A stretch of 64,000 nt of DNA, taken from Thermoanaerobaculia bacterium. GTDB taxonomy: Bacteria > Acidobacteriota > Thermoanaerobaculia > Gp7-AA8. The notes under the pieces were generated by a model. That model did not search any database, was not told the DNA's origin, and saw only the letters and a list, made by a program, of their open reading frames with translations. The stretch covers positions 12,154 through 76,153 of the forward strand of contig DATELQ010000004.1 in assembly GCA_035276475.1 (NCBI GenBank). Direction: 5' to 3'. Position 1 is the first letter of the stretch. Each line of letters opens with the position of its first letter. Positions 40,486 through 59,014 of the stretch are shown in pieces. Position numbers and translations under genes: made by a program.

Positions 40486-41559
40486 TCACTCTTTCGGAGC
40501 GCTTCTCTCCCCCGGCTGCAACGGCAGCCCCACGTCCCCGTAGTCGCGCATGAACACCATCAGCCCGTAGACGGGCGTGTTGTGCTCGAACCCCGCCACG
40601 AGCTGGTCGTTGTAGCGGTCGATGAAAAAGTCGAACGGGTCGTGCGGGTCGGTGTCCGTGACCTCCATGTCCGCGTCGAGCATCAAGAGCTTCCCCATCC
40701 GCAGCGTGCCGTGCCGGTAGTACATGACGTTCTTCTCGTTCGGGTACGGCGGCGCCAGATCCGCTAAATGCATCCCGGCGTCGAAGACCTGCACGAGCTC
40801 ACTCCCCTCGATGTGCACGTCGCTCAAGTGCGCGTCGATCTGCGGCGGCGGAAGGATCTTCGTCGGCTCCAGCAGCAGATCGTTCTTCTCCGCCTGCACC
40901 CCCTTCGCCTTGCTGAGGTCGAGCATCTTTTCCATGCTCAGGCCGAGGGCCTTGAGGAGTCCGAGGCCGTTGATGCCGCAGATGTCGAGCTTCGTCGGAT
41001 GGATGCGGATGCGGCCGTCCGGCGTCGCCGAGACGTCGCCGTACATCGTGAACGGAATGTCGACGCCCTTGTGCATGATGCCGGACTGGATGAGCTGACC
41101 ACCCTCCGGCACGACGTGGAGATTCTTGAGCGGCGCGCCGTCGTAGCCGAAGACGTAGCGGTTCATGAGCTGATCGAGCCCGACCGAGTCCATGCCGATC
41201 TTCGCCTTGTCGATCTTGACGACGAACTCGGTCTTGTTGTCGAAGTTGACCGGCTTCCCCGCCGCCTTCGACACGAACTGCCCGCGCAGCGAGTGGATGT
41301 GCATGACGGTGGTGGCGTCGATGTGGAAGTCGACGCCGCGCATCATGGCCTCGACCGGCGCCTTCGACTGCGCCTCCGTCGGCGTCGGGATGTCCTGCGA
41401 CCCGATCTCCGGAATCCGCGACGGCGGCGGCTCCGGCAGCTTCACCGCGGGCATGCCTTTGCGCAGGCAGCAGCAGGCGGGAAGGAGGAGAAGGGAGAGG
41501 AGGATGGCGATGGCGGCGGCGACGAGGGTAATGGGCTTCCACGGTAGCGTTCGTGGCAT
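40486..41559 (-). CDS. hypothetical membrane-anchored protein
   Basis: N-terminal TM/signal anchor with Cys cluster 'LLPACCCL'; no family recognised. Confidence 0.55.
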   Translation of the reverse strand: MPRTLPWKPITLVAAAIAILLSLLLLPACCCLRKGMPAVKLPEPPPSRIPEIGSQDIPTPTEAQSKAPVEAMMRGVDFHIDATTVMHIHSLRGQFVSKAAGKPVNFDNKTEFVVKIDKAKIGMDSVGLDQLMNRYVFGYDGAPLKNLHVVPEGGQLIQSGIMHKGVDIPFTMYGDVSATPDGRIRIHPTKLDICGINGLGLLKALGLSMEKMLDLSKAKGVQAEKNDLLLEPTKILPPPQIDAHLSDVHIEGSELVQVFDAGMHLADLAPPYPNEKNVMYYRHGTLRMGKLLMLDADMEVTDTDPHDPFDFFIDRYNDQLVAGFEHNTPVYGLMVFMRDYGDVGLPLQPGERSAPKE

Positions 41560-41591
41560 GCGGGGTGAGCAGTTTCACGAGTCGGGCCAGC

Positions 41592-41690
41592 GGTTCTTCG
41601 TTCTTGGTTCTTAGGTTCTTAGGTTCTTAGGTTTGTCCCGCCAATAACCTAAGAACCTAACAACCTAAGAACCTAACAACCCAAGAACCC
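41592..41690. repeat. long imperfect palindrome built from tandem 8-mers (ggttctta)n ... (taagaacc)n, low GC
   Basis: Read directly: ggttcttaggttcttaggttcttagg // cctaagaacctaacaacctaagaacc; innermost 12 bp pair perfectly; immediately upstream of the ABC ATPase GTG start. Confidence 0.7.
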
Positions 41691-41703
41691 GTAACATCTC
41701 CCC

Positions 41704-42420
41704 GTGATCGAAGTCATCAACCTCACAAAAAACTACGAAGCCCTCCTCGCCGTCGACCACCTCTCCTTCTCCGTCAAGCGCGGCGAGGTCCTCGGGTTGG
41801 TCGGGCCGAACGGCGCGGGGAAGACCACCACCCTGCGCGCGTTGGCCGGTATCCATCCGCCGACCGAGGGGCAGATTCGGATCTGCGGGGCGGACCTGCG
41901 GGAGGCGCCCGTTGACGCCAAGAAGCACCTCGCCTTCATGCCCGACGAGCCGCGGCTCTTCGACTACTTGACCGTCGAGGAGCACCTCCAATTCGTCGCG
42001 CGCATCTACGGCGTCGCCGACTTCCGCGAGCAGATGGAGCCGCTCCTCGCGGAGCTCGAGCTCGCCGACAAGCGCCGCGCCCTCCCCTCGGAGCTCTCGC
42101 GCGGCATGAAGCAGAAGCTCATGATCGCCTGCGGCTTCATCCACGCCCCCGACGTCCTGATCTTCGACGAGCCCTTGACCGGCCTCGACCCCCTCGGCAT
42201 CCGGCGCATGAAAGAGTCGATCGTCAAGCGCGCCCAGGACGGCGCCTCCGTCATCTTGAGCTCCCACCTCCTCTACCTCGTCGAGGAGCTCTGCGACACC
42301 GTCCTCATCATCAACCACGGCAAGCGCGCCGCGTACGGCACCATCGAAGACCTGAAGTGGCAGATCGGGCGCGACGCCTCGCTCGAGGATGCGTTCCTGA
42401 AAATCACGGAGACCGCGTGA
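41704..42420 (+). CDS. ABC transporter ATP-binding protein (ABC-2 type)
   Basis: Walker A 'GPNGAGKTT', signature 'LSRGMKQKL', Walker B 'LIFDEP', H-loop 'SSH'; GTG start. Confidence 0.9.
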   Translation: MIEVINLTKNYEALLAVDHLSFSVKRGEVLGLVGPNGAGKTTTLRALAGIHPPTEGQIRICGADLREAPVDAKKHLAFMPDEPRLFDYLTVEEHLQFVARIYGVADFREQMEPLLAELELADKRRALPSELSRGMKQKLMIACGFIHAPDVLIFDEPLTGLDPLGIRRMKESIVKRAQDGASVILSSHLLYLVEELCDTVLIINHGKRAAYGTIEDLKWQIGRDASLEDAFLKITETA

Positions 42421-44126
42421 TCGTCGCCCGCGCCTTCGTCGAGCTCGCGGTACGCTCCTTCCGCAACCGCATCGTGTCGCGCGTGAAGCGGATGAAAGAC
42501 CCGCGCTATGCGGTGGGCGCGCTCTTCGGCCTCCTCTACTTCGGCTGGATCTTCTTCCGCAACCGCGCCGGCTCGGCGCGCTTCTTCGGCGCCGCCGGGC
42601 CGGCCAGCGAGCTGCGCCTCGACGCCGTCTCCGCCGTCGTCCTCTTCATCATGCTCTTCGCCTGGGCGCTGCCGGGTGACTCCGGCGGCCTCGAGTTCAG
42701 CGAGGCGGAGATCGCGTTCCTCTTCCCCGCGCCGCTGCGGCGCCGCGACCTGCTCCTCTACAAGATCATCCGCCAGCAGCCGCAGGTGCTGATGAGCGTT
42801 CTCGTCTTCACGTTCTTCGGCGCCACGCGCTCGAAGTTCATCGGCCTCTGGATCGCCTTCAGCGTGATGTCGATCTACATGATGCTCGTCGCGCTCGGGC
42901 GCGCGCGGCTGCGGCTGATGGGGATCAACTTCCTGGTGCGGCTCATCGCTGTCCTGGCCATCGCCTTCGGCATCGCCGCCGTCGCCTTCTTCGCCGTCAA
43001 AGGGACGCGGCTCGACCTCGTCCACGTCACGCGCGACGTGCGCATGGCGCGGATCGACACCATCTTCCACATCCCTGCGATTGCGGCGATTCTCTTCCTC
43101 CCGAAGCTCTACGCCGGCGCGGTCTTCCCGCCGTCGCTCCTGACGCTGGCGACGTCGTCGCTCGCTCTCCTCCTCATCGGCGCGCTCTTTTTCGTCATCG
43201 CCGACCGCCTCAACGTCTCGTTCGAGGAAGGATCGCTGGTGCGCGCGCAGCGGCGCAACGAGCGGCTGCAGCAGATGCGCGAGCGCCGCGGCGGCCGCTA
43301 CGTGATGTTCAAGCGCGCCCGCGCGCCGTTCCGCCTCGCGCCGACCGGAAGGCCGGAGACCGCCATCGTCTGGAAGAACACGGTGGCCACGGTGCGGATG
43401 TCGCTGGCGTGGATCATCATCATCGTCATCGTCTTCGCGGTGCTGGTCGTCAACGCCGCCTTCATGTCGCCCGTCGCGCGCAGCGCCGTCGGCGTCACGT
43501 TCCTGATGCTCACTTGCCTGATGCCGTTCATCGGCCCGAACATCTTCACGAACGATCTCCGCCTCGACCTGCCGCGGCTCGAGGTGCTGAAGAGCTATCC
43601 GCTGTCGGGGGAGGGAATCGTGGCGGCGGAGGTGGCGGCGCCGCTGGTCATCATCGCGGCGCTGGAGCTGACGACGATCGGCTGCGCCTGGGCGATCCTG
43701 GCCACGTCCGCGAGCAAGATGACGGAGATCGTCGGCGCGGAGTTCGCCGTGGTGGCGCTGCTGCTGGCGGTGCCGGTCGTGGCGCTGCAGCTCCTCATCC
43801 GCAACGCCGTCCCGATCATCTTTCCGGCTTGGGCGGTCCGGACGAAGGAAGATCCGCGCGGCTTCGTCATCACCGGGCAGCGGCTGCTGCTGGTGCTCGG
43901 CAACCTGGTCGTGCTCGGCCTGGCGCTCGTCCCGGCCGCGCTCGTCTTCGCCCCCTCGGCGTACATCGCCATCAAGTTTTTCCACGGCAACGCCATCTTC
44001 ATGGCCGTCATGACGGCGCCCGCCATCGTGGTGATCTGCGGGGAGGTCTGGCTCGGCGTTCGCTTCCTCGGGTCGCGGTTCGAGGCGCTCGACGTGTCGC
44101 AGGAATTCGACACGATTGCCGTGTAA
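42417..44126 (+). CDS. putative ABC exporter permease (large multi-TM subunit)
   Basis: GTGA overlap with ATPase gene; ~12 predicted TM helices; 'Putative ABC exporter'-like architecture. Confidence 0.8.
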   Translation: MIVARAFVELAVRSFRNRIVSRVKRMKDPRYAVGALFGLLYFGWIFFRNRAGSARFFGAAGPASELRLDAVSAVVLFIMLFAWALPGDSGGLEFSEAEIAFLFPAPLRRRDLLLYKIIRQQPQVLMSVLVFTFFGATRSKFIGLWIAFSVMSIYMMLVALGRARLRLMGINFLVRLIAVLAIAFGIAAVAFFAVKGTRLDLVHVTRDVRMARIDTIFHIPAIAAILFLPKLYAGAVFPPSLLTLATSSLALLLIGALFFVIADRLNVSFEEGSLVRAQRRNERLQQMRERRGGRYVMFKRARAPFRLAPTGRPETAIVWKNTVATVRMSLAWIIIIVIVFAVLVVNAAFMSPVARSAVGVTFLMLTCLMPFIGPNIFTNDLRLDLPRLEVLKSYPLSGEGIVAAEVAAPLVIIAALELTTIGCAWAILATSASKMTEIVGAEFAVVALLLAVPVVALQLLIRNAVPIIFPAWAVRTKEDPRGFVITGQRLLLVLGNLVVLGLALVPAALVFAPSAYIAIKFFHGNAIFMAVMTAPAIVVICGEVWLGVRFLGSRFEALDVSQEFDTIAV

Positions 44127-44140
44127 CGGCGCACGCCGGC

Positions 44141-44341
44141 AAGCTCACGGCAGACGCTGACAAGCTCACTTAACCCGCTGACAATCTCACTTAACTAGCT
44201 GAGAATCTCTCTTAACTAGCTGAGAATCTCTCTTAACTAGCTGAGAATCTCTCTTAACTAGCCGAGAATCTCTCTTAACTTGCTGAGAATCTCTCTTAGT
44301 TTGCTGAGATTGCCAGCTAGCTAAGTGAGATTGTCAGCGGA
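44141..44341. repeat. MITE-like insertion: 5 tandem copies of a 21-bp unit (tagctgagaatctctcttaac) flanked by ~20-bp inverted repeats and a duplicated permease-gene terminus
   Basis: Units at 44197,44218,44239 identical; 44260 and 44281 variants; IR ccgctgacaatctcacttaac (44172-44196) vs gctaagtgagattgtcagcgg (44319-44341); caggaattcgacac...gtataa at 44349 repeats the last 27 nt of the permease gene (22/27 identical). Confidence 0.7.
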
Positions 44342-44409
44342 TTTGCTTCCTCCGCAGGCCGTGCCGGCCAGGAATTCGACACCATCGCTGTATAATTATT
44401 AGCAGCTAA

Positions 44410-46587
44410 GTGAAGCGTCTCCTCGTTCTCCTTGTCCTCGGCGTAACCCCTGCCCTGTTCGCCTCCGTCGGCACAGTCCGGCAGAACTTTCTCGACTACT
44501 ACGCGGCCGCCGGCGCCGACCGCAGCGCCCCGCGCATGGCCGACGCGCTGGGCACGCTCGAGGCGCAGACGCGCGACGCCACCGCCCCCGGCTTCCTCCT
44601 CGCGGACGGCACGTGGAGCGACATCGACTACAAAGAAACGCCGAGCGGCGCGTGGTCGCCGTGGGACCACTTCCGCCGCCTGACCACGATGGCCAAGGCG
44701 TACCGAACGCCCGGCCAGCGCTACTACAACGACGAGACCCTGCGGCAGCAGATCGAGGCCGCGCTCGGCCAGGTGCCGTCGTTCTACGGCAAGACCACGC
44801 TGCCGGTCGGCAACTGGTGGTTCTGGACCCTCGGCGCGCCGCTCGACCTGGGGCCGACGCTCGTCCTGATGCGCGGCAGCGTCTCGCAAAAGATCTTCGA
44901 CGACTGCGTGGCCACGCTGCAGGTGCACATCGGCACGTCGCCCACCGCGAAGGGCCTGGTCGGACCGACGCCCGTCGGCGAGAACCTCGTCTGGTCGTGC
45001 TTCACGCACCTCTGTCTCGCCCTGGCGCGCGACGACGCCGCGATGCTCGCCGCCGTCGGCAGCGCCCTCGGCACTGCCTGCACGACAACGGCAGGCGACG
45101 GCATCCAGGTCGACTCCTCGTTCCACCAGCACGGCCCGCAGCTCTACACCGGCGGCTACGGCGGCTCGTTCGCCTACGACGTCTCGCGCCTCGTGCTGCT
45201 GCTGCGCAACAGCGAGTTCGCGCCGGCGCCGGCGGCGCTCAACAGCTTCGCCAACTACGTCGCCGACGGCATCGCCTGGTCGCTCTACGGCCCCTATTTC
45301 GACGTCTCGGTCGTCGGCCGCGAGGTGGCGCGCTCGTCGACGAGCGGCATCAACGGCGTGGCCGCGCTGCTGCAGGCGTCGACGTTCAACTCGACCCGCA
45401 ACGCCGAGATCAAGAGCGCCGCCGCGGCCGCGCTCCAGTCGTGGCGCTGGCCGCTCTCTCCAGAGCTCGCCGCGCTGGCGACGCAGACAACGACGAATGC
45501 AGCATGGCCCACCGGCCACCAGCACTACTACACCTCCGACTACACGGTGCACCGCCGCCCCACTTGGTTCGCCTCGGTGAAGATGTTCTCCGCGCGCACG
45601 AAGTCGGGCGAGAACACGAACGGCGAGAATCTCCTCGGTTCGCGCCAGTCCGACGGCCGCTTCTACCTCGTCATGAACGGCGACGAGTACTTCGGCAACG
45701 ACAGCTGGCCCGCGCTCGACTGGACGCGCCTCCCCGGCATCACCGTCGAGCAGAAGGCCGACGCGGCGGACGACCAGTACGGCTACGGCACGCGCCTCTT
45801 CGCCGGCGGCACGGGCGACGGAAGGAACGGCCTGTCGGCGATGGAGCTCGCGCCGGTCAACTCGGCGCTGACGGCGAGGAAGAGCTGGTTTTTCTTCGAC
45901 GACACGATCGTGTTCCTCACAAACAGCATCACGTCCCCGTCCTCTTACAGAGTGGAGACGATCATCAACCAGTGGCCGCTGCACGGCAGCGTCACGCGAA
46001 ACGGCAACTGGCTCGCCGCCGACAACGTCGGCTACTACGTCTACCCGCAGGCGGCGGCGCTGAACGTCTCGACCGCCCCGCGCACCGGCACCTGGGCCGC
46101 CCTCGGCGGCTCGACCGACACGACGCCGCGCACGCAGACGTTCCTCACGCTCTGGCTCGACCACGGCGCGACTCCGACGAACGCCGACGCCGCGTACGCG
46201 ATCGTCCCAGGCGCGAGCGTCGCGACGATGTCATCGTTCCTCCCGCCGACGATCCTCGCCAACAACGCCAACGTCTCCGCCGTGACGAGCGGCTCGACGA
46301 CGGCGATCGTCTTCTGGTCGCCGCGCGCGAGCGTCGCCGGCTACACCGCAGACGCCGCCAGCGTCGTCTACGCGACGACCACCGGAAGCGCGCTGCAGCT
46401 CGCCGCCGCCGACCCGACGAACGGCACCGGCGTCTTCCACGTGACCGTCCCCGGCCGCTGGCTCACGACCGACGTGCCGTCGACGTTCGACGGCCACGGC
46501 ACGACGCTGACGCTCCCCCGCGGCGGCGCCACGACGCGCGTGACGCTCAGTCCGCCGCCGGCGCGGCGAAGGGCGGCGGGAAAATGA
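44410..46587 (+). CDS. polysaccharide lyase family 8 (hyaluronate/chondroitin AC/xanthan lyase-like), secreted
   Basis: Signal peptide; 'GNWWFWTLGAP' Lyase_8_N motif, 'SSFHQHGPQLYTGGYGGSFAYD' catalytic His/Tyr region, 'RQSDGRFYLVMNGDEY'. Confidence 0.85.
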   Translation: MKRLLVLLVLGVTPALFASVGTVRQNFLDYYAAAGADRSAPRMADALGTLEAQTRDATAPGFLLADGTWSDIDYKETPSGAWSPWDHFRRLTTMAKAYRTPGQRYYNDETLRQQIEAALGQVPSFYGKTTLPVGNWWFWTLGAPLDLGPTLVLMRGSVSQKIFDDCVATLQVHIGTSPTAKGLVGPTPVGENLVWSCFTHLCLALARDDAAMLAAVGSALGTACTTTAGDGIQVDSSFHQHGPQLYTGGYGGSFAYDVSRLVLLLRNSEFAPAPAALNSFANYVADGIAWSLYGPYFDVSVVGREVARSSTSGINGVAALLQASTFNSTRNAEIKSAAAAALQSWRWPLSPELAALATQTTTNAAWPTGHQHYYTSDYTVHRRPTWFASVKMFSARTKSGENTNGENLLGSRQSDGRFYLVMNGDEYFGNDSWPALDWTRLPGITVEQKADAADDQYGYGTRLFAGGTGDGRNGLSAMELAPVNSALTARKSWFFFDDTIVFLTNSITSPSSYRVETIINQWPLHGSVTRNGNWLAADNVGYYVYPQAAALNVSTAPRTGTWAALGGSTDTTPRTQTFLTLWLDHGATPTNADAAYAIVPGASVATMSSFLPPTILANNANVSAVTSGSTTAIVFWSPRASVAGYTADAASVVYATTTGSALQLAAADPTNGTGVFHVTVPGRWLTTDVPSTFDGHGTTLTLPRGGATTRVTLSPPPARRRAAGK

Positions 46588-57527: not shown

Positions 57528-59014
57528 TGCGACTGGCGTTTCTTTGTCTTGCGTTTGCCACCGCCGCCTCCGCGCAGCTCACTTCCGGCTACGTCGTTCG
57601 CACCGGCGTGCCGTTCCCCGTGGTCGCCGACGTCAACGGCGACGGCTTCGACGATCTGATCCAGGAGAAAAACATCCTGATCAACCGCAGCGCCACGTTC
57701 GACGAGCAGAAGATCACGCTGCGCGAGTACGAGCGCCTCTTCGGCGAGGCCGACGTCAACGGCGACGGTGTTCCCGACCTCCTCACCATCGATCAAAGCT
57801 ACAGCGCGCCGGGGCAGCCGGTCTATCGCCTTTACATCGGCAACGCGGCGCACACCTACTCGAAGTCGATCGTTGTCGCGTCCGGGCCGCGGCCGTACGT
57901 CGCCGACGTCGACGCCGACGGTAAGGACGACCTCGTCACCTTCGCCCCCGTCCGTCCCGACGGCATCCGCGAGATCGGCATGGACGTCGTCATCCTCCGT
58001 TCGCGCGGCGACGGCACGTTCGAGTCCCTCCCGCCGTTTCGCATTCCGACCGATCCGCAGCTCTATCCCGAGCCTCGCGTCCAGATCGGCGACCTCGATC
58101 ACGACGGCTTGCCGGACATGGTTCTGCGCTGCACCGAGGACCTCGTCATCCTGCACGGCCTCGGCGGCGGGCGTTTCGCGGTCGAGAGCCATTACATGCC
58201 GATGAACGACGAATTCGGCGGCTGGTCGACGCGCCTCGTGGACGTCGACGGCGACGGCAACCTCGACATCGCCGTGGCCGCGTGGCGCAGCATCCGCGTG
58301 TTCTTCGGCGACGGCCACGGGCACTTCCCGCGCGTCACCAAGACGGCCATCCCGAAACTGCACGAGGGCGACTACTGGCCCGGCGTCTACTACGACGATC
58401 ACACCCAACAGCCGCGCGACCTCGCCATTGGCCACTTCACCCGCAGCGATCGCAACCAGATCGCCGCCGGCATGCTCGAAGGCGACCTCGTCATCTTCGA
58501 CTGGGAGCAGGGAGCGCTGAAGGAAGTGTCGCGCACGCGCACCGAGTTCTGGGGCCTCGACATCCGCACCGGCGCGTTCCACGGCAAAGACGCGCTCGAC
58601 GATGTGTACGTCATGGGCACGCTGATCTGGGGCGATCCCTTCCCGCGGCCGCGCCTCTTCAACGGCACCTTGGGCGCGGCGACGATCGACGCACCGGCGC
58701 GGCGTCGCGCCATGGGCCGGCCGCCGGTGTTGGCCAGCGCGCTGCGCATCGAGATCAGCGGCGAATGCATCGATGACAGCGCCGATCTCTGGTCGTTCGC
58801 GCGCGATGGCGTCTTCGGCCGCTCCCAGCGCGGCGACACGACCATCGACGCCGCGTTCGACGGCGATCAGATCTACTTCCGCCTCGCGGCGCCGTTCCTC
58901 ACGTACGCGGCGCACGGCGTCCTCACCGGTTCCAACGGCTCGTACAGCGGCAGCGCAGCGGTCCAGACCAGCTGCGGCTGGAAAGCGATGACCATCACCG
59001 CCACCGCGGAGTGA
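57527..59014 (+). CDS. FG-GAP/VCBS repeat protein, secreted
   Basis: Signal peptide MRLAFLCLAFATAASA; repeated 'DVNGDGxxDL' calcium-binding FG-GAP motifs; ATGA overlap with upstream gene. Confidence 0.75.
   Translation: MRLAFLCLAFATAASAQLTSGYVVRTGVPFPVVADVNGDGFDDLIQEKNILINRSATFDEQKITLREYERLFGEADVNGDGVPDLLTIDQSYSAPGQPVYRLYIGNAAHTYSKSIVVASGPRPYVADVDADGKDDLVTFAPVRPDGIREIGMDVVILRSRGDGTFESLPPFRIPTDPQLYPEPRVQIGDLDHDGLPDMVLRCTEDLVILHGLGGGRFAVESHYMPMNDEFGGWSTRLVDVDGDGNLDIAVAAWRSIRVFFGDGHGHFPRVTKTAIPKLHEGDYWPGVYYDDHTQQPRDLAIGHFTRSDRNQIAAGMLEGDLVIFDWEQGALKEVSRTRTEFWGLDIRTGAFHGKDALDDVYVMGTLIWGDPFPRPRLFNGTLGAATIDAPARRRAMGRPPVLASALRIEISGECIDDSADLWSFARDGVFGRSQRGDTTIDAAFDGDQIYFRLAAPFLTYAAHGVLTGSNGSYSGSAAVQTSCGWKAMTITATAE

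Follow-up and report, generated by a model that had tools for sequence, protein, structure and literature searches.

The junction examined here lies in a 64,000-nucleotide stretch of DNA from an uncultured soil bacterium of the Thermoanaerobaculia (contig DATELQ010000004.1), referred to below at its full length as the window, and holds a 242-bp block of non-coding repeats (44127-44368) between an ABC exporter permease gene and a gene for a secreted polysaccharide lyase. The block consists largely of a 21-bp tandem array, it is flanked by two copies of the 3' end of the permease gene, and comparison with orthologous loci indicates that it was inserted at this position. The genes and features of the junction are as follows.

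41704-42420: ABC ATPase gene
42417-44126, plus strand: ABC exporter permease gene (Pfam PF16962, 'putative ABC exporter'; 569-amino-acid form), the last nine codons of which are copy 1 of the duplicated gene end
44100-44126, plus strand: copy 1 of the gene end (QEFDTIAV*), CAGGAATTCGACACGATTGCCGTGTAA, the functional permease end, with the derived synonymous codons ACG ATT GCC GTG
44127-44155, no strand: left junction of the insert, CGGCGCAC followed by edge unit u1 GCCGGCAAGCTCACGGCAGAC, holding the GCCGGCA arm (44135-44141)
44153-44302, plus strand: direct 21-bp units of the A-type, ACGCTGACAAGCTCACTTAAC, CCGCTGACAATCTCACTTAAC, three times TAGCTGAGAATCTCTCTTAAC, then two variants
44303-44340, minus strand: right arm, made up of inverted A-type units that read CCGCTGACAATCTCACTTAGCTAGCTGGCAATCTCAGC as reverse complement
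44341-44368, no strand: right junction of the insert, ATTTGCTTCCTCCGCAGGCCGTGCCGGC, rich in GC and containing a small hairpin (GGCCG-TGC-CGGCC) as well as the TGCCGGC arm (44362-44368)
44369-44395, plus strand: copy 2 of the gene end, CAGGAATTCGACACCATCGCTGTATAA, read as the displaced ancestral permease terminus and now non-coding
44396-44409, plus strand: TTATTAGCAGCTAA, the ancestral spacer of 14 nt between permease and lyase, which every empty site has
44410-46587, plus strand: polysaccharide lyase family 8 gene with a signal peptide (secreted; Pfam PF02278, PF08124, PF02884)

From the permease stop to the lyase start the distance is 283 nt, over which the GC content goes down to 0.39; values of 0.39-0.44 are found across the repeat block, and about 0.68 around it. 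The permease protein in its 569-amino-acid form is identical to NCBI entry HKS21222.1 (100% match), and the proteins of the region have their best matches in Thermoanaerobaculia (Acidobacteriota) MAGs. The sequence of the repeat block is also present in an independent ENA assembly (L007; L-numbers denote orthologous or related loci that were compared with the window), and the start of the array is present in a Logan contig (L008, from SRR5195140), the end of which falls inside the 21-bp array. Because the sequence recurs in L007 and, for the start of the array, in L008, the block is no assembly artefact of a single dataset. The genes called between about 10 kb upstream and about 10 kb downstream of the permease gene do not include an integrase, recombinase, excisionase, transposase or RAYT (REP-associated tyrosine transposase) gene. 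Moreover, no regulator gene is linked to the array, and no reverse transcriptase is found among the genes called around the locus.

The duplicated gene end and the ancestral junction

The initial annotation of this DNA had described a 21-bp array, inverted repeats and a second permease end encoded by synonymous codons, all of which are present. The two copies of the gene end lie 269 nt apart and are identical at 23 of 27 positions; their first 14 bp are the same, after which wobble differences occur in four consecutive codons (C/G, C/T, T/C and A/G), each of the four being a synonymous third position. At spacings of 60-400 nt, and with the array excluded, only one comparable repeat pair is present in the window, a coding repeat at 57619, and no pair of the quality of copies 1 and 2 was obtained in 20 locally shuffled windows.

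For comparison, orthologous loci were retrieved for the eight closest permeases. Empty sites are present in four relatives (L012, L014, L015/L016 and L021/L022), in which the permease TAA is followed by 14 nt (TTATTAGCAG..) and then by the GTG start codon of the lyase gene, the permeases of these loci displaying amino acid identities of 87% (L012), 81% (L021/L022) and 77% (L014 and L015/L016). Copy 2 is identical to the live gene end of L015 at 27 of 27 positions and to those of L014 and L021 at 26 of 27, and at each of the four positions where the copies differ the change lies in copy 1, which is the one now attached to the gene. The tree roots with the empty-site lineages as outgroups, and the empty site is therefore the ancestral state. 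Judged from these alignments, the permease-lyase junction of the window is the site of an insertion of non-coding DNA, and copy 2 is the original gene end; the empty sites thus bear out the earlier proposal of a non-coding inverted-repeat insertion after the permease stop, accompanied by duplication of the gene end.

Both neighbouring genes came out of this event unbroken, in that copy 1 keeps the permease C-terminus intact, while copy 2 and the spacer keep the ancestral 41 nt upstream of the lyase gene. The end of copy 2 and the spacer together contain a perfect TATAAT (44391-44396), which spans the stop codon, lies 13 nt upstream of the lyase GTG and represents a putative promoter element of the lyase gene. 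The 72 nt upstream of the lyase GTG (about 58 nt of permease end plus the 14-nt spacer, corresponding to window positions 44055-44126 and 44369-44409) are the same in L021 and L014 and have a single difference in L015, whereas the genes of these three loci are only about 80% identical overall. The near-identity of this stretch suggests that the permease 3' end is under constraint at the nucleotide level, presumably from embedded signals for expression of the lyase gene. Such constraint would account for the retention of copy 2, and, by acting on copy 2, would leave the wobble bases of copy 1 free to change, including the GTA to GTG change that destroys the TATAAT. It would also account for the observation that only insertions that duplicate the gene end are seen. 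Constraint offers no explanation for the left boundary of the duplication, as the conserved block reaches further upstream, and the TATAAT is not indispensable, because it is destroyed in L009.

In L015 (7707-7800) and in L016, only about the first 95 nt of the lyase gene are left, other genes taking the place of the rest, with the permease-lyase junction intact.

Structure of the insert and relatives of its 21-bp unit

Tandem Repeats Finder (TRF) places the 21-bp array at 44156-44309 (7.3 copies, 92% matches, score 224), which makes it by a wide margin the top-scoring tandem repeat of the 64-kb window. Three identical central units occupy 44196-44258, the units are more divergent toward both edges, and the 21-bp phase is kept from 44135 to 44368. 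At up to three mismatches, the 19-mer core has eight matches against 0.01 expected. Divergent edge units around identical central units would follow from homogenisation by slippage or unequal exchange. Part of the array is inverted: ccgctgacaatctcacttaac (44175-44195) and gctaagtgagattgtcagcgg (44320-44340) are complementary at 20 of 21 positions, and an outer inverted pair is formed by GCCGGCA (44135-44141) and TGCCGGC (44362-44368). The whole 242-nt block folds as a single long imperfect hairpin, with predicted energies of -103.7 kcal/mol (z = -8.0) for the plus strand and -118.9 kcal/mol (z = -9.2) for the minus strand, and 0 of 200 shuffles folded as well. All plus-strand frames are stopped in the array, the 21-bp unit of the window having TAA, TAG and TGA across the three frames. 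An Rfam search of the whole window at gathering thresholds gave no match, and an Rfam E-value search of 41400-44500 gave as its sole match a chance miRNA-hairpin match to a palindrome upstream of the ABC operon, which is described in the last section.

The initial annotation had reckoned with the case that no copy of the array exists anywhere else; in fact, the 21-bp family is found at one unrelated locus. The search for further copies consisted of an exact 19-mer scan of 185,579 species-representative genomes, which yielded six single chance matches in unrelated taxa and no array, and a two-unit pattern scan of the JGI metagenomes, which yielded three contigs (L017, L018 and L019) with A-type arrays. 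The units of these contigs (TAGCTGAGAATCTCACTTAAC and TAGCTGAGAACCTCAGCTAAC) are identical to those of the window at 20 of 21 positions, the reverse complement of window 44303-44318 (AGCTGGCAATCTCAGC) is identical to units in them, and the terminal motifs ACGCTGACAAGCT and TTGTCAGCG..TTT are common to the arrays of the window and of all three contigs. The family consensus reads TAGCTGAGAAyCTCAsyTAAC, and the best-preserved unit, that of L017-L019, is an 8-3-8 dyad (TAGCTGAG-AAC-CTCAGCTA) with a 2-nt linker. BLAST of the window element against the PLSDB plasmids and of the L018 array against the INPHARED phages gave no match, and a scan of viral contigs gave 0 matches.

The three contigs represent the same locus in different strains, as their flanks are 91-98% identical and their arrays differ by insertions or deletions of whole units. 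The array is located between the convergent ends of a thioesterase gene and a zinc-type oxidoreductase gene, and in L018 and L019 it is bordered by an 8-10-bp direct repeat, TCAGTGAA(C)G, that takes in both stop codons. A relative of the oxidoreductase (at least 90% identical) is HEY6140568, and the permease of L009 is HEY6137607; because these accessions are only 2,961 numbers apart, the second locus probably belongs to the L009-type sister lineage. Across about 240 kb of Thermoanaerobaculia DNA, low-GC tandem arrays with a TRF score of at least 60 occur only on the flanks of the ABC operon and at this second locus.

At the edge of its array, L017 carries a 1.7-kb insertion sequence (IS) of the IS5/IS1182-like type (310-2011), which encodes a 472-amino-acid transposase (DUF772 and DDE_Tnp_1) and has the inverted repeats AGTTAGTTCCTGTCCT. 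Its terminal octamer AGTTAGTT equals the linker motif of the array and is the sole 8-mer in common. This IS was considered as the autonomous partner of the array and was rejected, as its termini differ from those of the array; the autonomous IS with matching termini that the initial annotation had envisaged was thus not found, the only IS seen being this one at the array edge.

Several minor features of these contigs may be recorded here. The DNA of L017 beyond the IS is unrelated to the left flank of L018. In L019 (reverse strand), the last 24 nt of the oxidoreductase gene stand beside the array and are followed abruptly by unrelated coding sequence; either a rearrangement with a breakpoint near the array or chimerism of the metagenome contig would account for this. 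A GC-rich module of about 35 nt, consisting of GAATTC, a small hairpin and then GGAAGC, adjoins the array in the window (44345-44380) and in L018 (883-912), with 27 of 38 positions identical (p ~0.006, uncorrected for seven tests); its offset from the array end differs between the two, and it and the beginning of copy 2 overlap in the window.

Other occupants of the junction and the origin of the insert

The same junction carries different DNA in sister lineages. In L020 (85% amino acid identity), copy 1 is identical to that of the window, including the ACG ATT GCC GTG codons, the left junction is as in the window (CGGCGCRCGCCGGCA..CTCACGGC; about 85% identity over the stretch corresponding to 44127-44155) and the right junction is similar (GCYGGC followed by CAGG). 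The interior of the L020 insert consists of about 10 copies of a different 21-bp unit, the B-type CCGTTTCACAACGCTCGATGG, in the same phase as in the window, and the insert is 253 nt long, compared with 242 nt in the window. Edge unit u1 is about 81% like its counterpart in L020 and u2 about 45%, the central units are unrelated, and the 21-bp phase and the length of about 11 units are kept in both. In L013 (86% amino acid identity), a 57-nt hairpin of the 7-mers GCGATTR / YAATCGC (z = -6.8) is flanked by the same 27-nt duplication, with boundaries within 2 nt. Its 7-mer array begins right at the gene end (GCGGTTTAA followed by GCGATTG and GCGATTA), its copy 2 has decayed (six changes, stop codon included), and a lineage-specific CTC codon for Leu is present in both of its copies. 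Finally, L009-L011 and L025 have a 29-nt GC hairpin, TGGAGTGCGGCGGCCATGCCGCCGCTCTC, at the junction, with no duplication. This hairpin belongs to a GC-rich family resembling repetitive extragenic palindromic (REP) sequences (TGGAGTGCGGCGGCCATGCCGCCGCTSTC; L009 11711-11739 and 16118-16146, L012 13515-13575, L025 1239-1267), which occurs at three different gene ends in the about 240 kb. Two of these lie beyond the junction, one after another gene of L009 and one, as an inverted, REPIN-like pair, after the lyase stop of L012.

With four alternative occupants in sister lineages, the permease-lyase junction is a recurrently struck hot spot. The five ingroup lineages are about equidistant and mosaic, and the number of independent insertion events can for that reason not be fixed. 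The CTC codon in both L013 copies argues for a separate event in L013, and a TAA-to-CAA change that is common to copy 2 of L013 and L020 argues in the opposite direction.

In L020 (1936-2244) the whole insert forms one open reading frame (ORF) of 102 amino acids with 7-residue repeats (LDGRFTT), which starts within the permease end, stops at a TGA that overlaps the lyase GTG, and is aided by the TAA-to-CAA change in copy 2. The ORF may have arisen by chance, since all three frames are open in that array. A coding reading of the insert was rejected, given the plus-strand stops in all frames in the window, the lack of conservation of the L020 ORF and the three open frames there.

We read window 44127-44368 as inserted selfish, non-coding and hairpin-forming repeats of a low-copy, lineage-specific, non-autonomous family that resembles REP sequences, bacterial interspersed mosaic elements (BIMEs) and miniature transposable elements with inverted repeats (MITEs), an assignment that we hold with about as much confidence as doubt. 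Repeats of such a family would land in gene junctions that are AT-rich and permissive, and the array would then grow, shrink and homogenise by slipped-strand or unequal exchange in the 21-bp register. The survivors would be only those insertions whose target duplication rebuilds the essential sequence of both neighbours, and the 27-bp duplication is taken to stem from an event of the 'insertion with long target duplication' kind. A hairpin that lacks a U-tract, at about -104 kcal/mol by RNA energy parameters, would thereby be placed between the permease and lyase genes, where, by analogy with REP/BIME elements (PMC3184786), it could stabilise the upstream RNA end or attenuate read-through and in this way uncouple the lyase from the permease. 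The element gives no sign of a beneficial role, being missing from most orthologs, replaced in L020, non-coding and without an RNA family.

This reading draws on several known classes of repeats. Like the REP/BIME sequences of Enterobacteria and Pseudomonas, the units are short, palindromic and lineage-specific, and they are found outside genes, at gene 3' ends and between convergent genes. REPs are reiterated in tandem, sometimes with flanking DNA, ISs insert into them preferentially, and their stable hairpins (RNA or ssDNA) have no U-tract (PMC3733652, PMC3184786), and the IS at the edge of the L017 array is in line with such targeting. The 21-bp unit also falls in the 20-40-nt range of extragenic palindromic units, located after a stop codon in one locus and between convergent genes in the other. 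It does not carry the GTAG/CGTC tag of REPs (PMC3733652), as the consensus here starts with (A)CTAG and GTAG is found in one L017 unit only. Furthermore, REP units are GC-rich and present in tens to hundreds per genome, whereas the present units are AT-rich and few in number (one array per 64 kb), and a duplication such as the 27 bp found here is not a product of RAYT/IS200-type chemistry. The missing tag and the low copy number therefore exclude strict membership of the REP class, while the bona fide REP-like GC hairpin family of these genomes struck the same junction.

The MITE label of the initial annotation fits in part. MITEs such as the Correia, ERIC and RUP elements are likewise non-coding, below 300 bp, capable of forming stem-loops, flanked by direct repeats and recognisable from filled versus empty sites (PMC3184786), and the present insert has terminal inverted repeats, a small size without a transposase gene and a stable stem-loop. 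The label does not extend to the duplication, which is 27 bp here and 2-10 bp in MITEs, where it is usually below 10 bp; in addition, the interior of the insert is a homogenising tandem array, and a parent IS with the same ends was not found. With a duplication of excessive length and no known parent IS, the insert does not qualify as a MITE in the strict sense. Transposition of the DDE type can produce long duplications, as illustrated by IS1630 (19-26 bp) and IS1549/IS1634 (8-514 bp) (PMC2853133, PMC2266710), but no such IS or its termini occur near the element. A likeness to mycobacterial interspersed repetitive units of the variable-number tandem repeat type (MIRU-VNTR) lies in the variable number of tandem units in short operon junctions and in filled and empty sites between species. 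MIRUs, however, have units of 40-100 bp with 4-bp direct repeats, compared with 21 bp here, and their ORF overlapping the flanking genes (PMC3184786) has a parallel in L020 only, the window unit being stopped in three plus-strand frames.

The duplication itself resembles what Nobusato et al. (2000) and Furuta et al. (2010, PMC2853133) described as insertion with long target duplication, in which foreign DNA is flanked by a direct duplication of a unique target overlapping a gene 3' end. These insertions involve no transposase or integrase; their cargo consists of kb-scale restriction-modification genes and their duplications exceed 30 bp, ranging from 46 to 423 bp (PMC2853133). The cargo here is 242 bp of repeats, without restriction-modification genes, and the clear duplication is 27 bp; a degenerate extension to about 63 nt is possible (p = 0.034), which is not significant after correction.

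A number of results weigh against the assignment to a REP/BIME- and MITE-like family. At 27 bp, the flanking duplication greatly exceeds the length that is normal for target duplications made by transposases, and no transposase, RAYT or integrase gene is among those called within about 10 kb on either side of the permease gene. The window and L020 have junctions but no units in common, which requires either very fast turnover or replacement of the array. The L020 array forms no hairpin (z = +0.35) and the central units of the window have no intact unit-level dyad (5/8), and hairpin formation is consequently not a conserved property of the insert. An A-type array occurs once in the 64-kb window and not at all in about 110 kb from relatives, only one further A-type locus was obtained from the JGI metagenomes and none from the 185,579 representative genomes. 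Arrays of this kind probably break up assemblies of these genomes from short reads, and further copies may be hidden in this way. Lastly, an empty ortholog of the second locus was not obtained, L023 and L024 being not syntenic.

The gradient from similar edge units to unrelated central units between the window and L020, with 21-bp phase and length of about 11 units kept in both, agrees with an origin in place that involves no mobile element. Slippage or template switching would have duplicated the gene end, a 21-bp seed would have expanded, and partial inversion would have created the palindrome, with the likeness to the L017-L019 arrays arising from later copying between loci. The L013 array that starts directly at the gene end is what such an origin would give, and the shortening of the unit of the upstream palindrome from 8 to 7 nt in both arms shows that remodelling in place does occur. 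Weak likeness between insert and flank was seen as well, namely for AGC-AGCTAAGTGA (p = 0.024) and between the right junction and the 3' region of the permease gene (p = 0.034). These similarities are lost on correction for the number of tests, however, and are absent for L020 and L013 (p = 0.68-0.97). Moreover, units that agree at 20 of 21 positions and terminal motifs that recur at an unrelated locus need transfer between loci in any case, and the same junction also took a clearly dispersed REP-like element. An origin in place is on balance unlikely.

The layout of the duplication, with 14 identical bp followed by four wobble differences, can also be read as the trace of site-specific integration, the insert being the remnant or miniature of an integrative element comparable to e14 in icd. 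Crossover would have taken place within the identical 14-bp core CAGGAATTCGACAC, copy 1 past the core (GATTGCCGTGTAA) would have been supplied by the element and the original end displaced as copy 2, and the integrase-bearing part would since have been lost, or the 242-bp element mobilised in trans. Copy 2 is indeed the ancestral sequence, the copy 1 variants are common to the window and L020, and the duplication boundaries are identical in two lineages with different inserts. The icd/icdC pair of e14 provides a precedent (PMC13626634), and attachment cores of about 27 nt are on record (PMC12540744). With e14 or phage 21, too, the gene 3' end is present twice, with mainly synonymous differences and the reading frame kept: icd extends into the prophage on one side, a C-terminal pseudogene, icdC, stands on the other, and excision of e14 leaves parallel synonymous changes plus two substitutions (PMC13626634). 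The prophage e14, however, measures 15 kb and has its own integrase, as opposed to 242 bp without a recombinase among the called neighbours here, and since no recombinase was found, membership of the integrative elements does not hold. The same result leaves the 'remnant of site-specific insertion' suggested in the initial annotation as a candidate that lacks an integrase or excisionase gene among those called within about 10 kb of the permease. In addition, of the four variant codons, ACG and ATT alone are restricted to the window and L020, as GCC GTG is also found in L009/L025, which have no duplication, and GCC in outgroups; synonymous drift after release from nucleotide constraint explains the codon pattern about equally well. 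The CTC codon in both L013 copies is expected for a duplication in place and not for an element-supplied end, and the borders of the array at the second locus (L018) do not contain the CAGGAATTCGACAC core. Taken together, integration of this kind appears rather improbable.

The structure of the array also has properties of a functional cis-regulatory region, in which dyad operators at a spacing of two helical turns, or promoter-like units, would drive or insulate the lyase gene. The dyad TAGCTGAG-N3-CTCAGCTA recurs every 21 bp, and a promoter scan found two sigma-70-like matches facing the lyase gene (CTGACA-17-GACAAT/GAGAAT) against 0.4 expected; these are consensus matches only, and the CTGACA-17-GAGAAT matches are created by the 21-bp period. 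Low-GC arrays are present on both flanks of the operon, and in the about 240 kb none with a score of at least 60 is found near other genes except at the L017-L019 locus. The initial annotation had allowed for conservation of the repeats as a regulatory region in orthologous loci, and no such conservation was observed, as most orthologous loci have no array and the sequence is wholly replaced in L020. Furthermore, the homogenised units at the centre of the window array have a degenerate dyad, the convergent gene ends on either side of the second locus do not call for a promoter, and no regulator gene is linked to the array. A regulatory role of the array is accordingly considered very unlikely.

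The four different inserts and identical duplication boundaries in five sister lineages would be explained if units were exchanged between loci by a new class of mobile non-coding DNA, the arrays of which enter tight junctions with duplications of at least 27 bp. For such a class, the duplication would regenerate the 3' end of the upstream gene together with the expression signals of the downstream gene. We regard the existence of such a class as improbable, and nothing points to a biochemically new system.

Other candidate mechanisms were tried and rejected. An origin of the unit from flanking sequence is not significant after correction, and a B-type unit matches the permease 3' end at 14 of 21 positions, which is about chance. 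A donor patch upstream of copy 1, as in homology-facilitated illegitimate recombination, was rejected as the window and L020 have no common variants in the adjacent approximately 200 nt; one common variant is present further upstream in the permease gene, about 290 nt from the stop. A diversity-generating retroelement was dismissed since the differences are not adenine-specific, the repeat measures only 27 nt and no reverse transcriptase is among the called genes. Ectopic integration of the CRISPR type, which would give a duplication of 27-28 bp, does not apply, as the inserts of 57 and 242 nt are unlike spacers and no leader or repeat is present. A dif/Xer (IMEX) site was rejected by eye, and thus weakly: the 27-mer has TGTATA in common with dif but does not have the conserved XerD arm, and in all relatives it forms a conserved gene end.

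The filled and empty sites document the colonisation of a compact, GC-rich genome, from an uncultured class of Acidobacteriota, by small repeat elements that leave genes unbroken. The junction is also a naturally occurring case of 'insertion with long target duplication' in which the cargo is tiny and free of genes; such a case could help to separate the mechanism from any activity of the cargo, and junction hot spots with fast-evolving 21-bp arrays could serve as VNTR-like strain markers.

The palindrome upstream of the operon

Upstream of the ABC operon, the window holds a second repeat structure, which was identified by TRF and from the sequence.

41592-41689, no strand: upstream palindrome, about five copies of GGTTCTTA, 12 nt, then about five copies of TAAGAACC

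This palindrome fills most of the 144-nt divergent region between a gene encoding 357 amino acids and the ABC ATPase gene, and its predicted hairpin has an energy of -50.6 kcal/mol (z = -8.5). It is present at the same position in five lineages (the window, L009 9175-9272, L012 8821-8890, L013 2845-2935 and L021 2083-2180); it is missing from L014, and L015 has a different palindrome in its place. The initial annotation had noted that the palindrome and the 21-bp array bracket the operon, which they do; the two are not the ends of one composite, as the palindrome is a different, older element with an 8-mer unit that is unrelated in sequence to the 21-bp array. In L013 the unit has changed from 8 to 7 nt in both arms together, so that either the arms were remodelled in concert or there was selection for the hairpin.

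The divergent region upstream of the ABC operon in L015 (4977-5177) contains a 106-nt unit in tandem (1.9 copies) with AT-rich palindromic repeats, and this 106-nt duplication repeats the flanking GGGCCAGAGCG motif.

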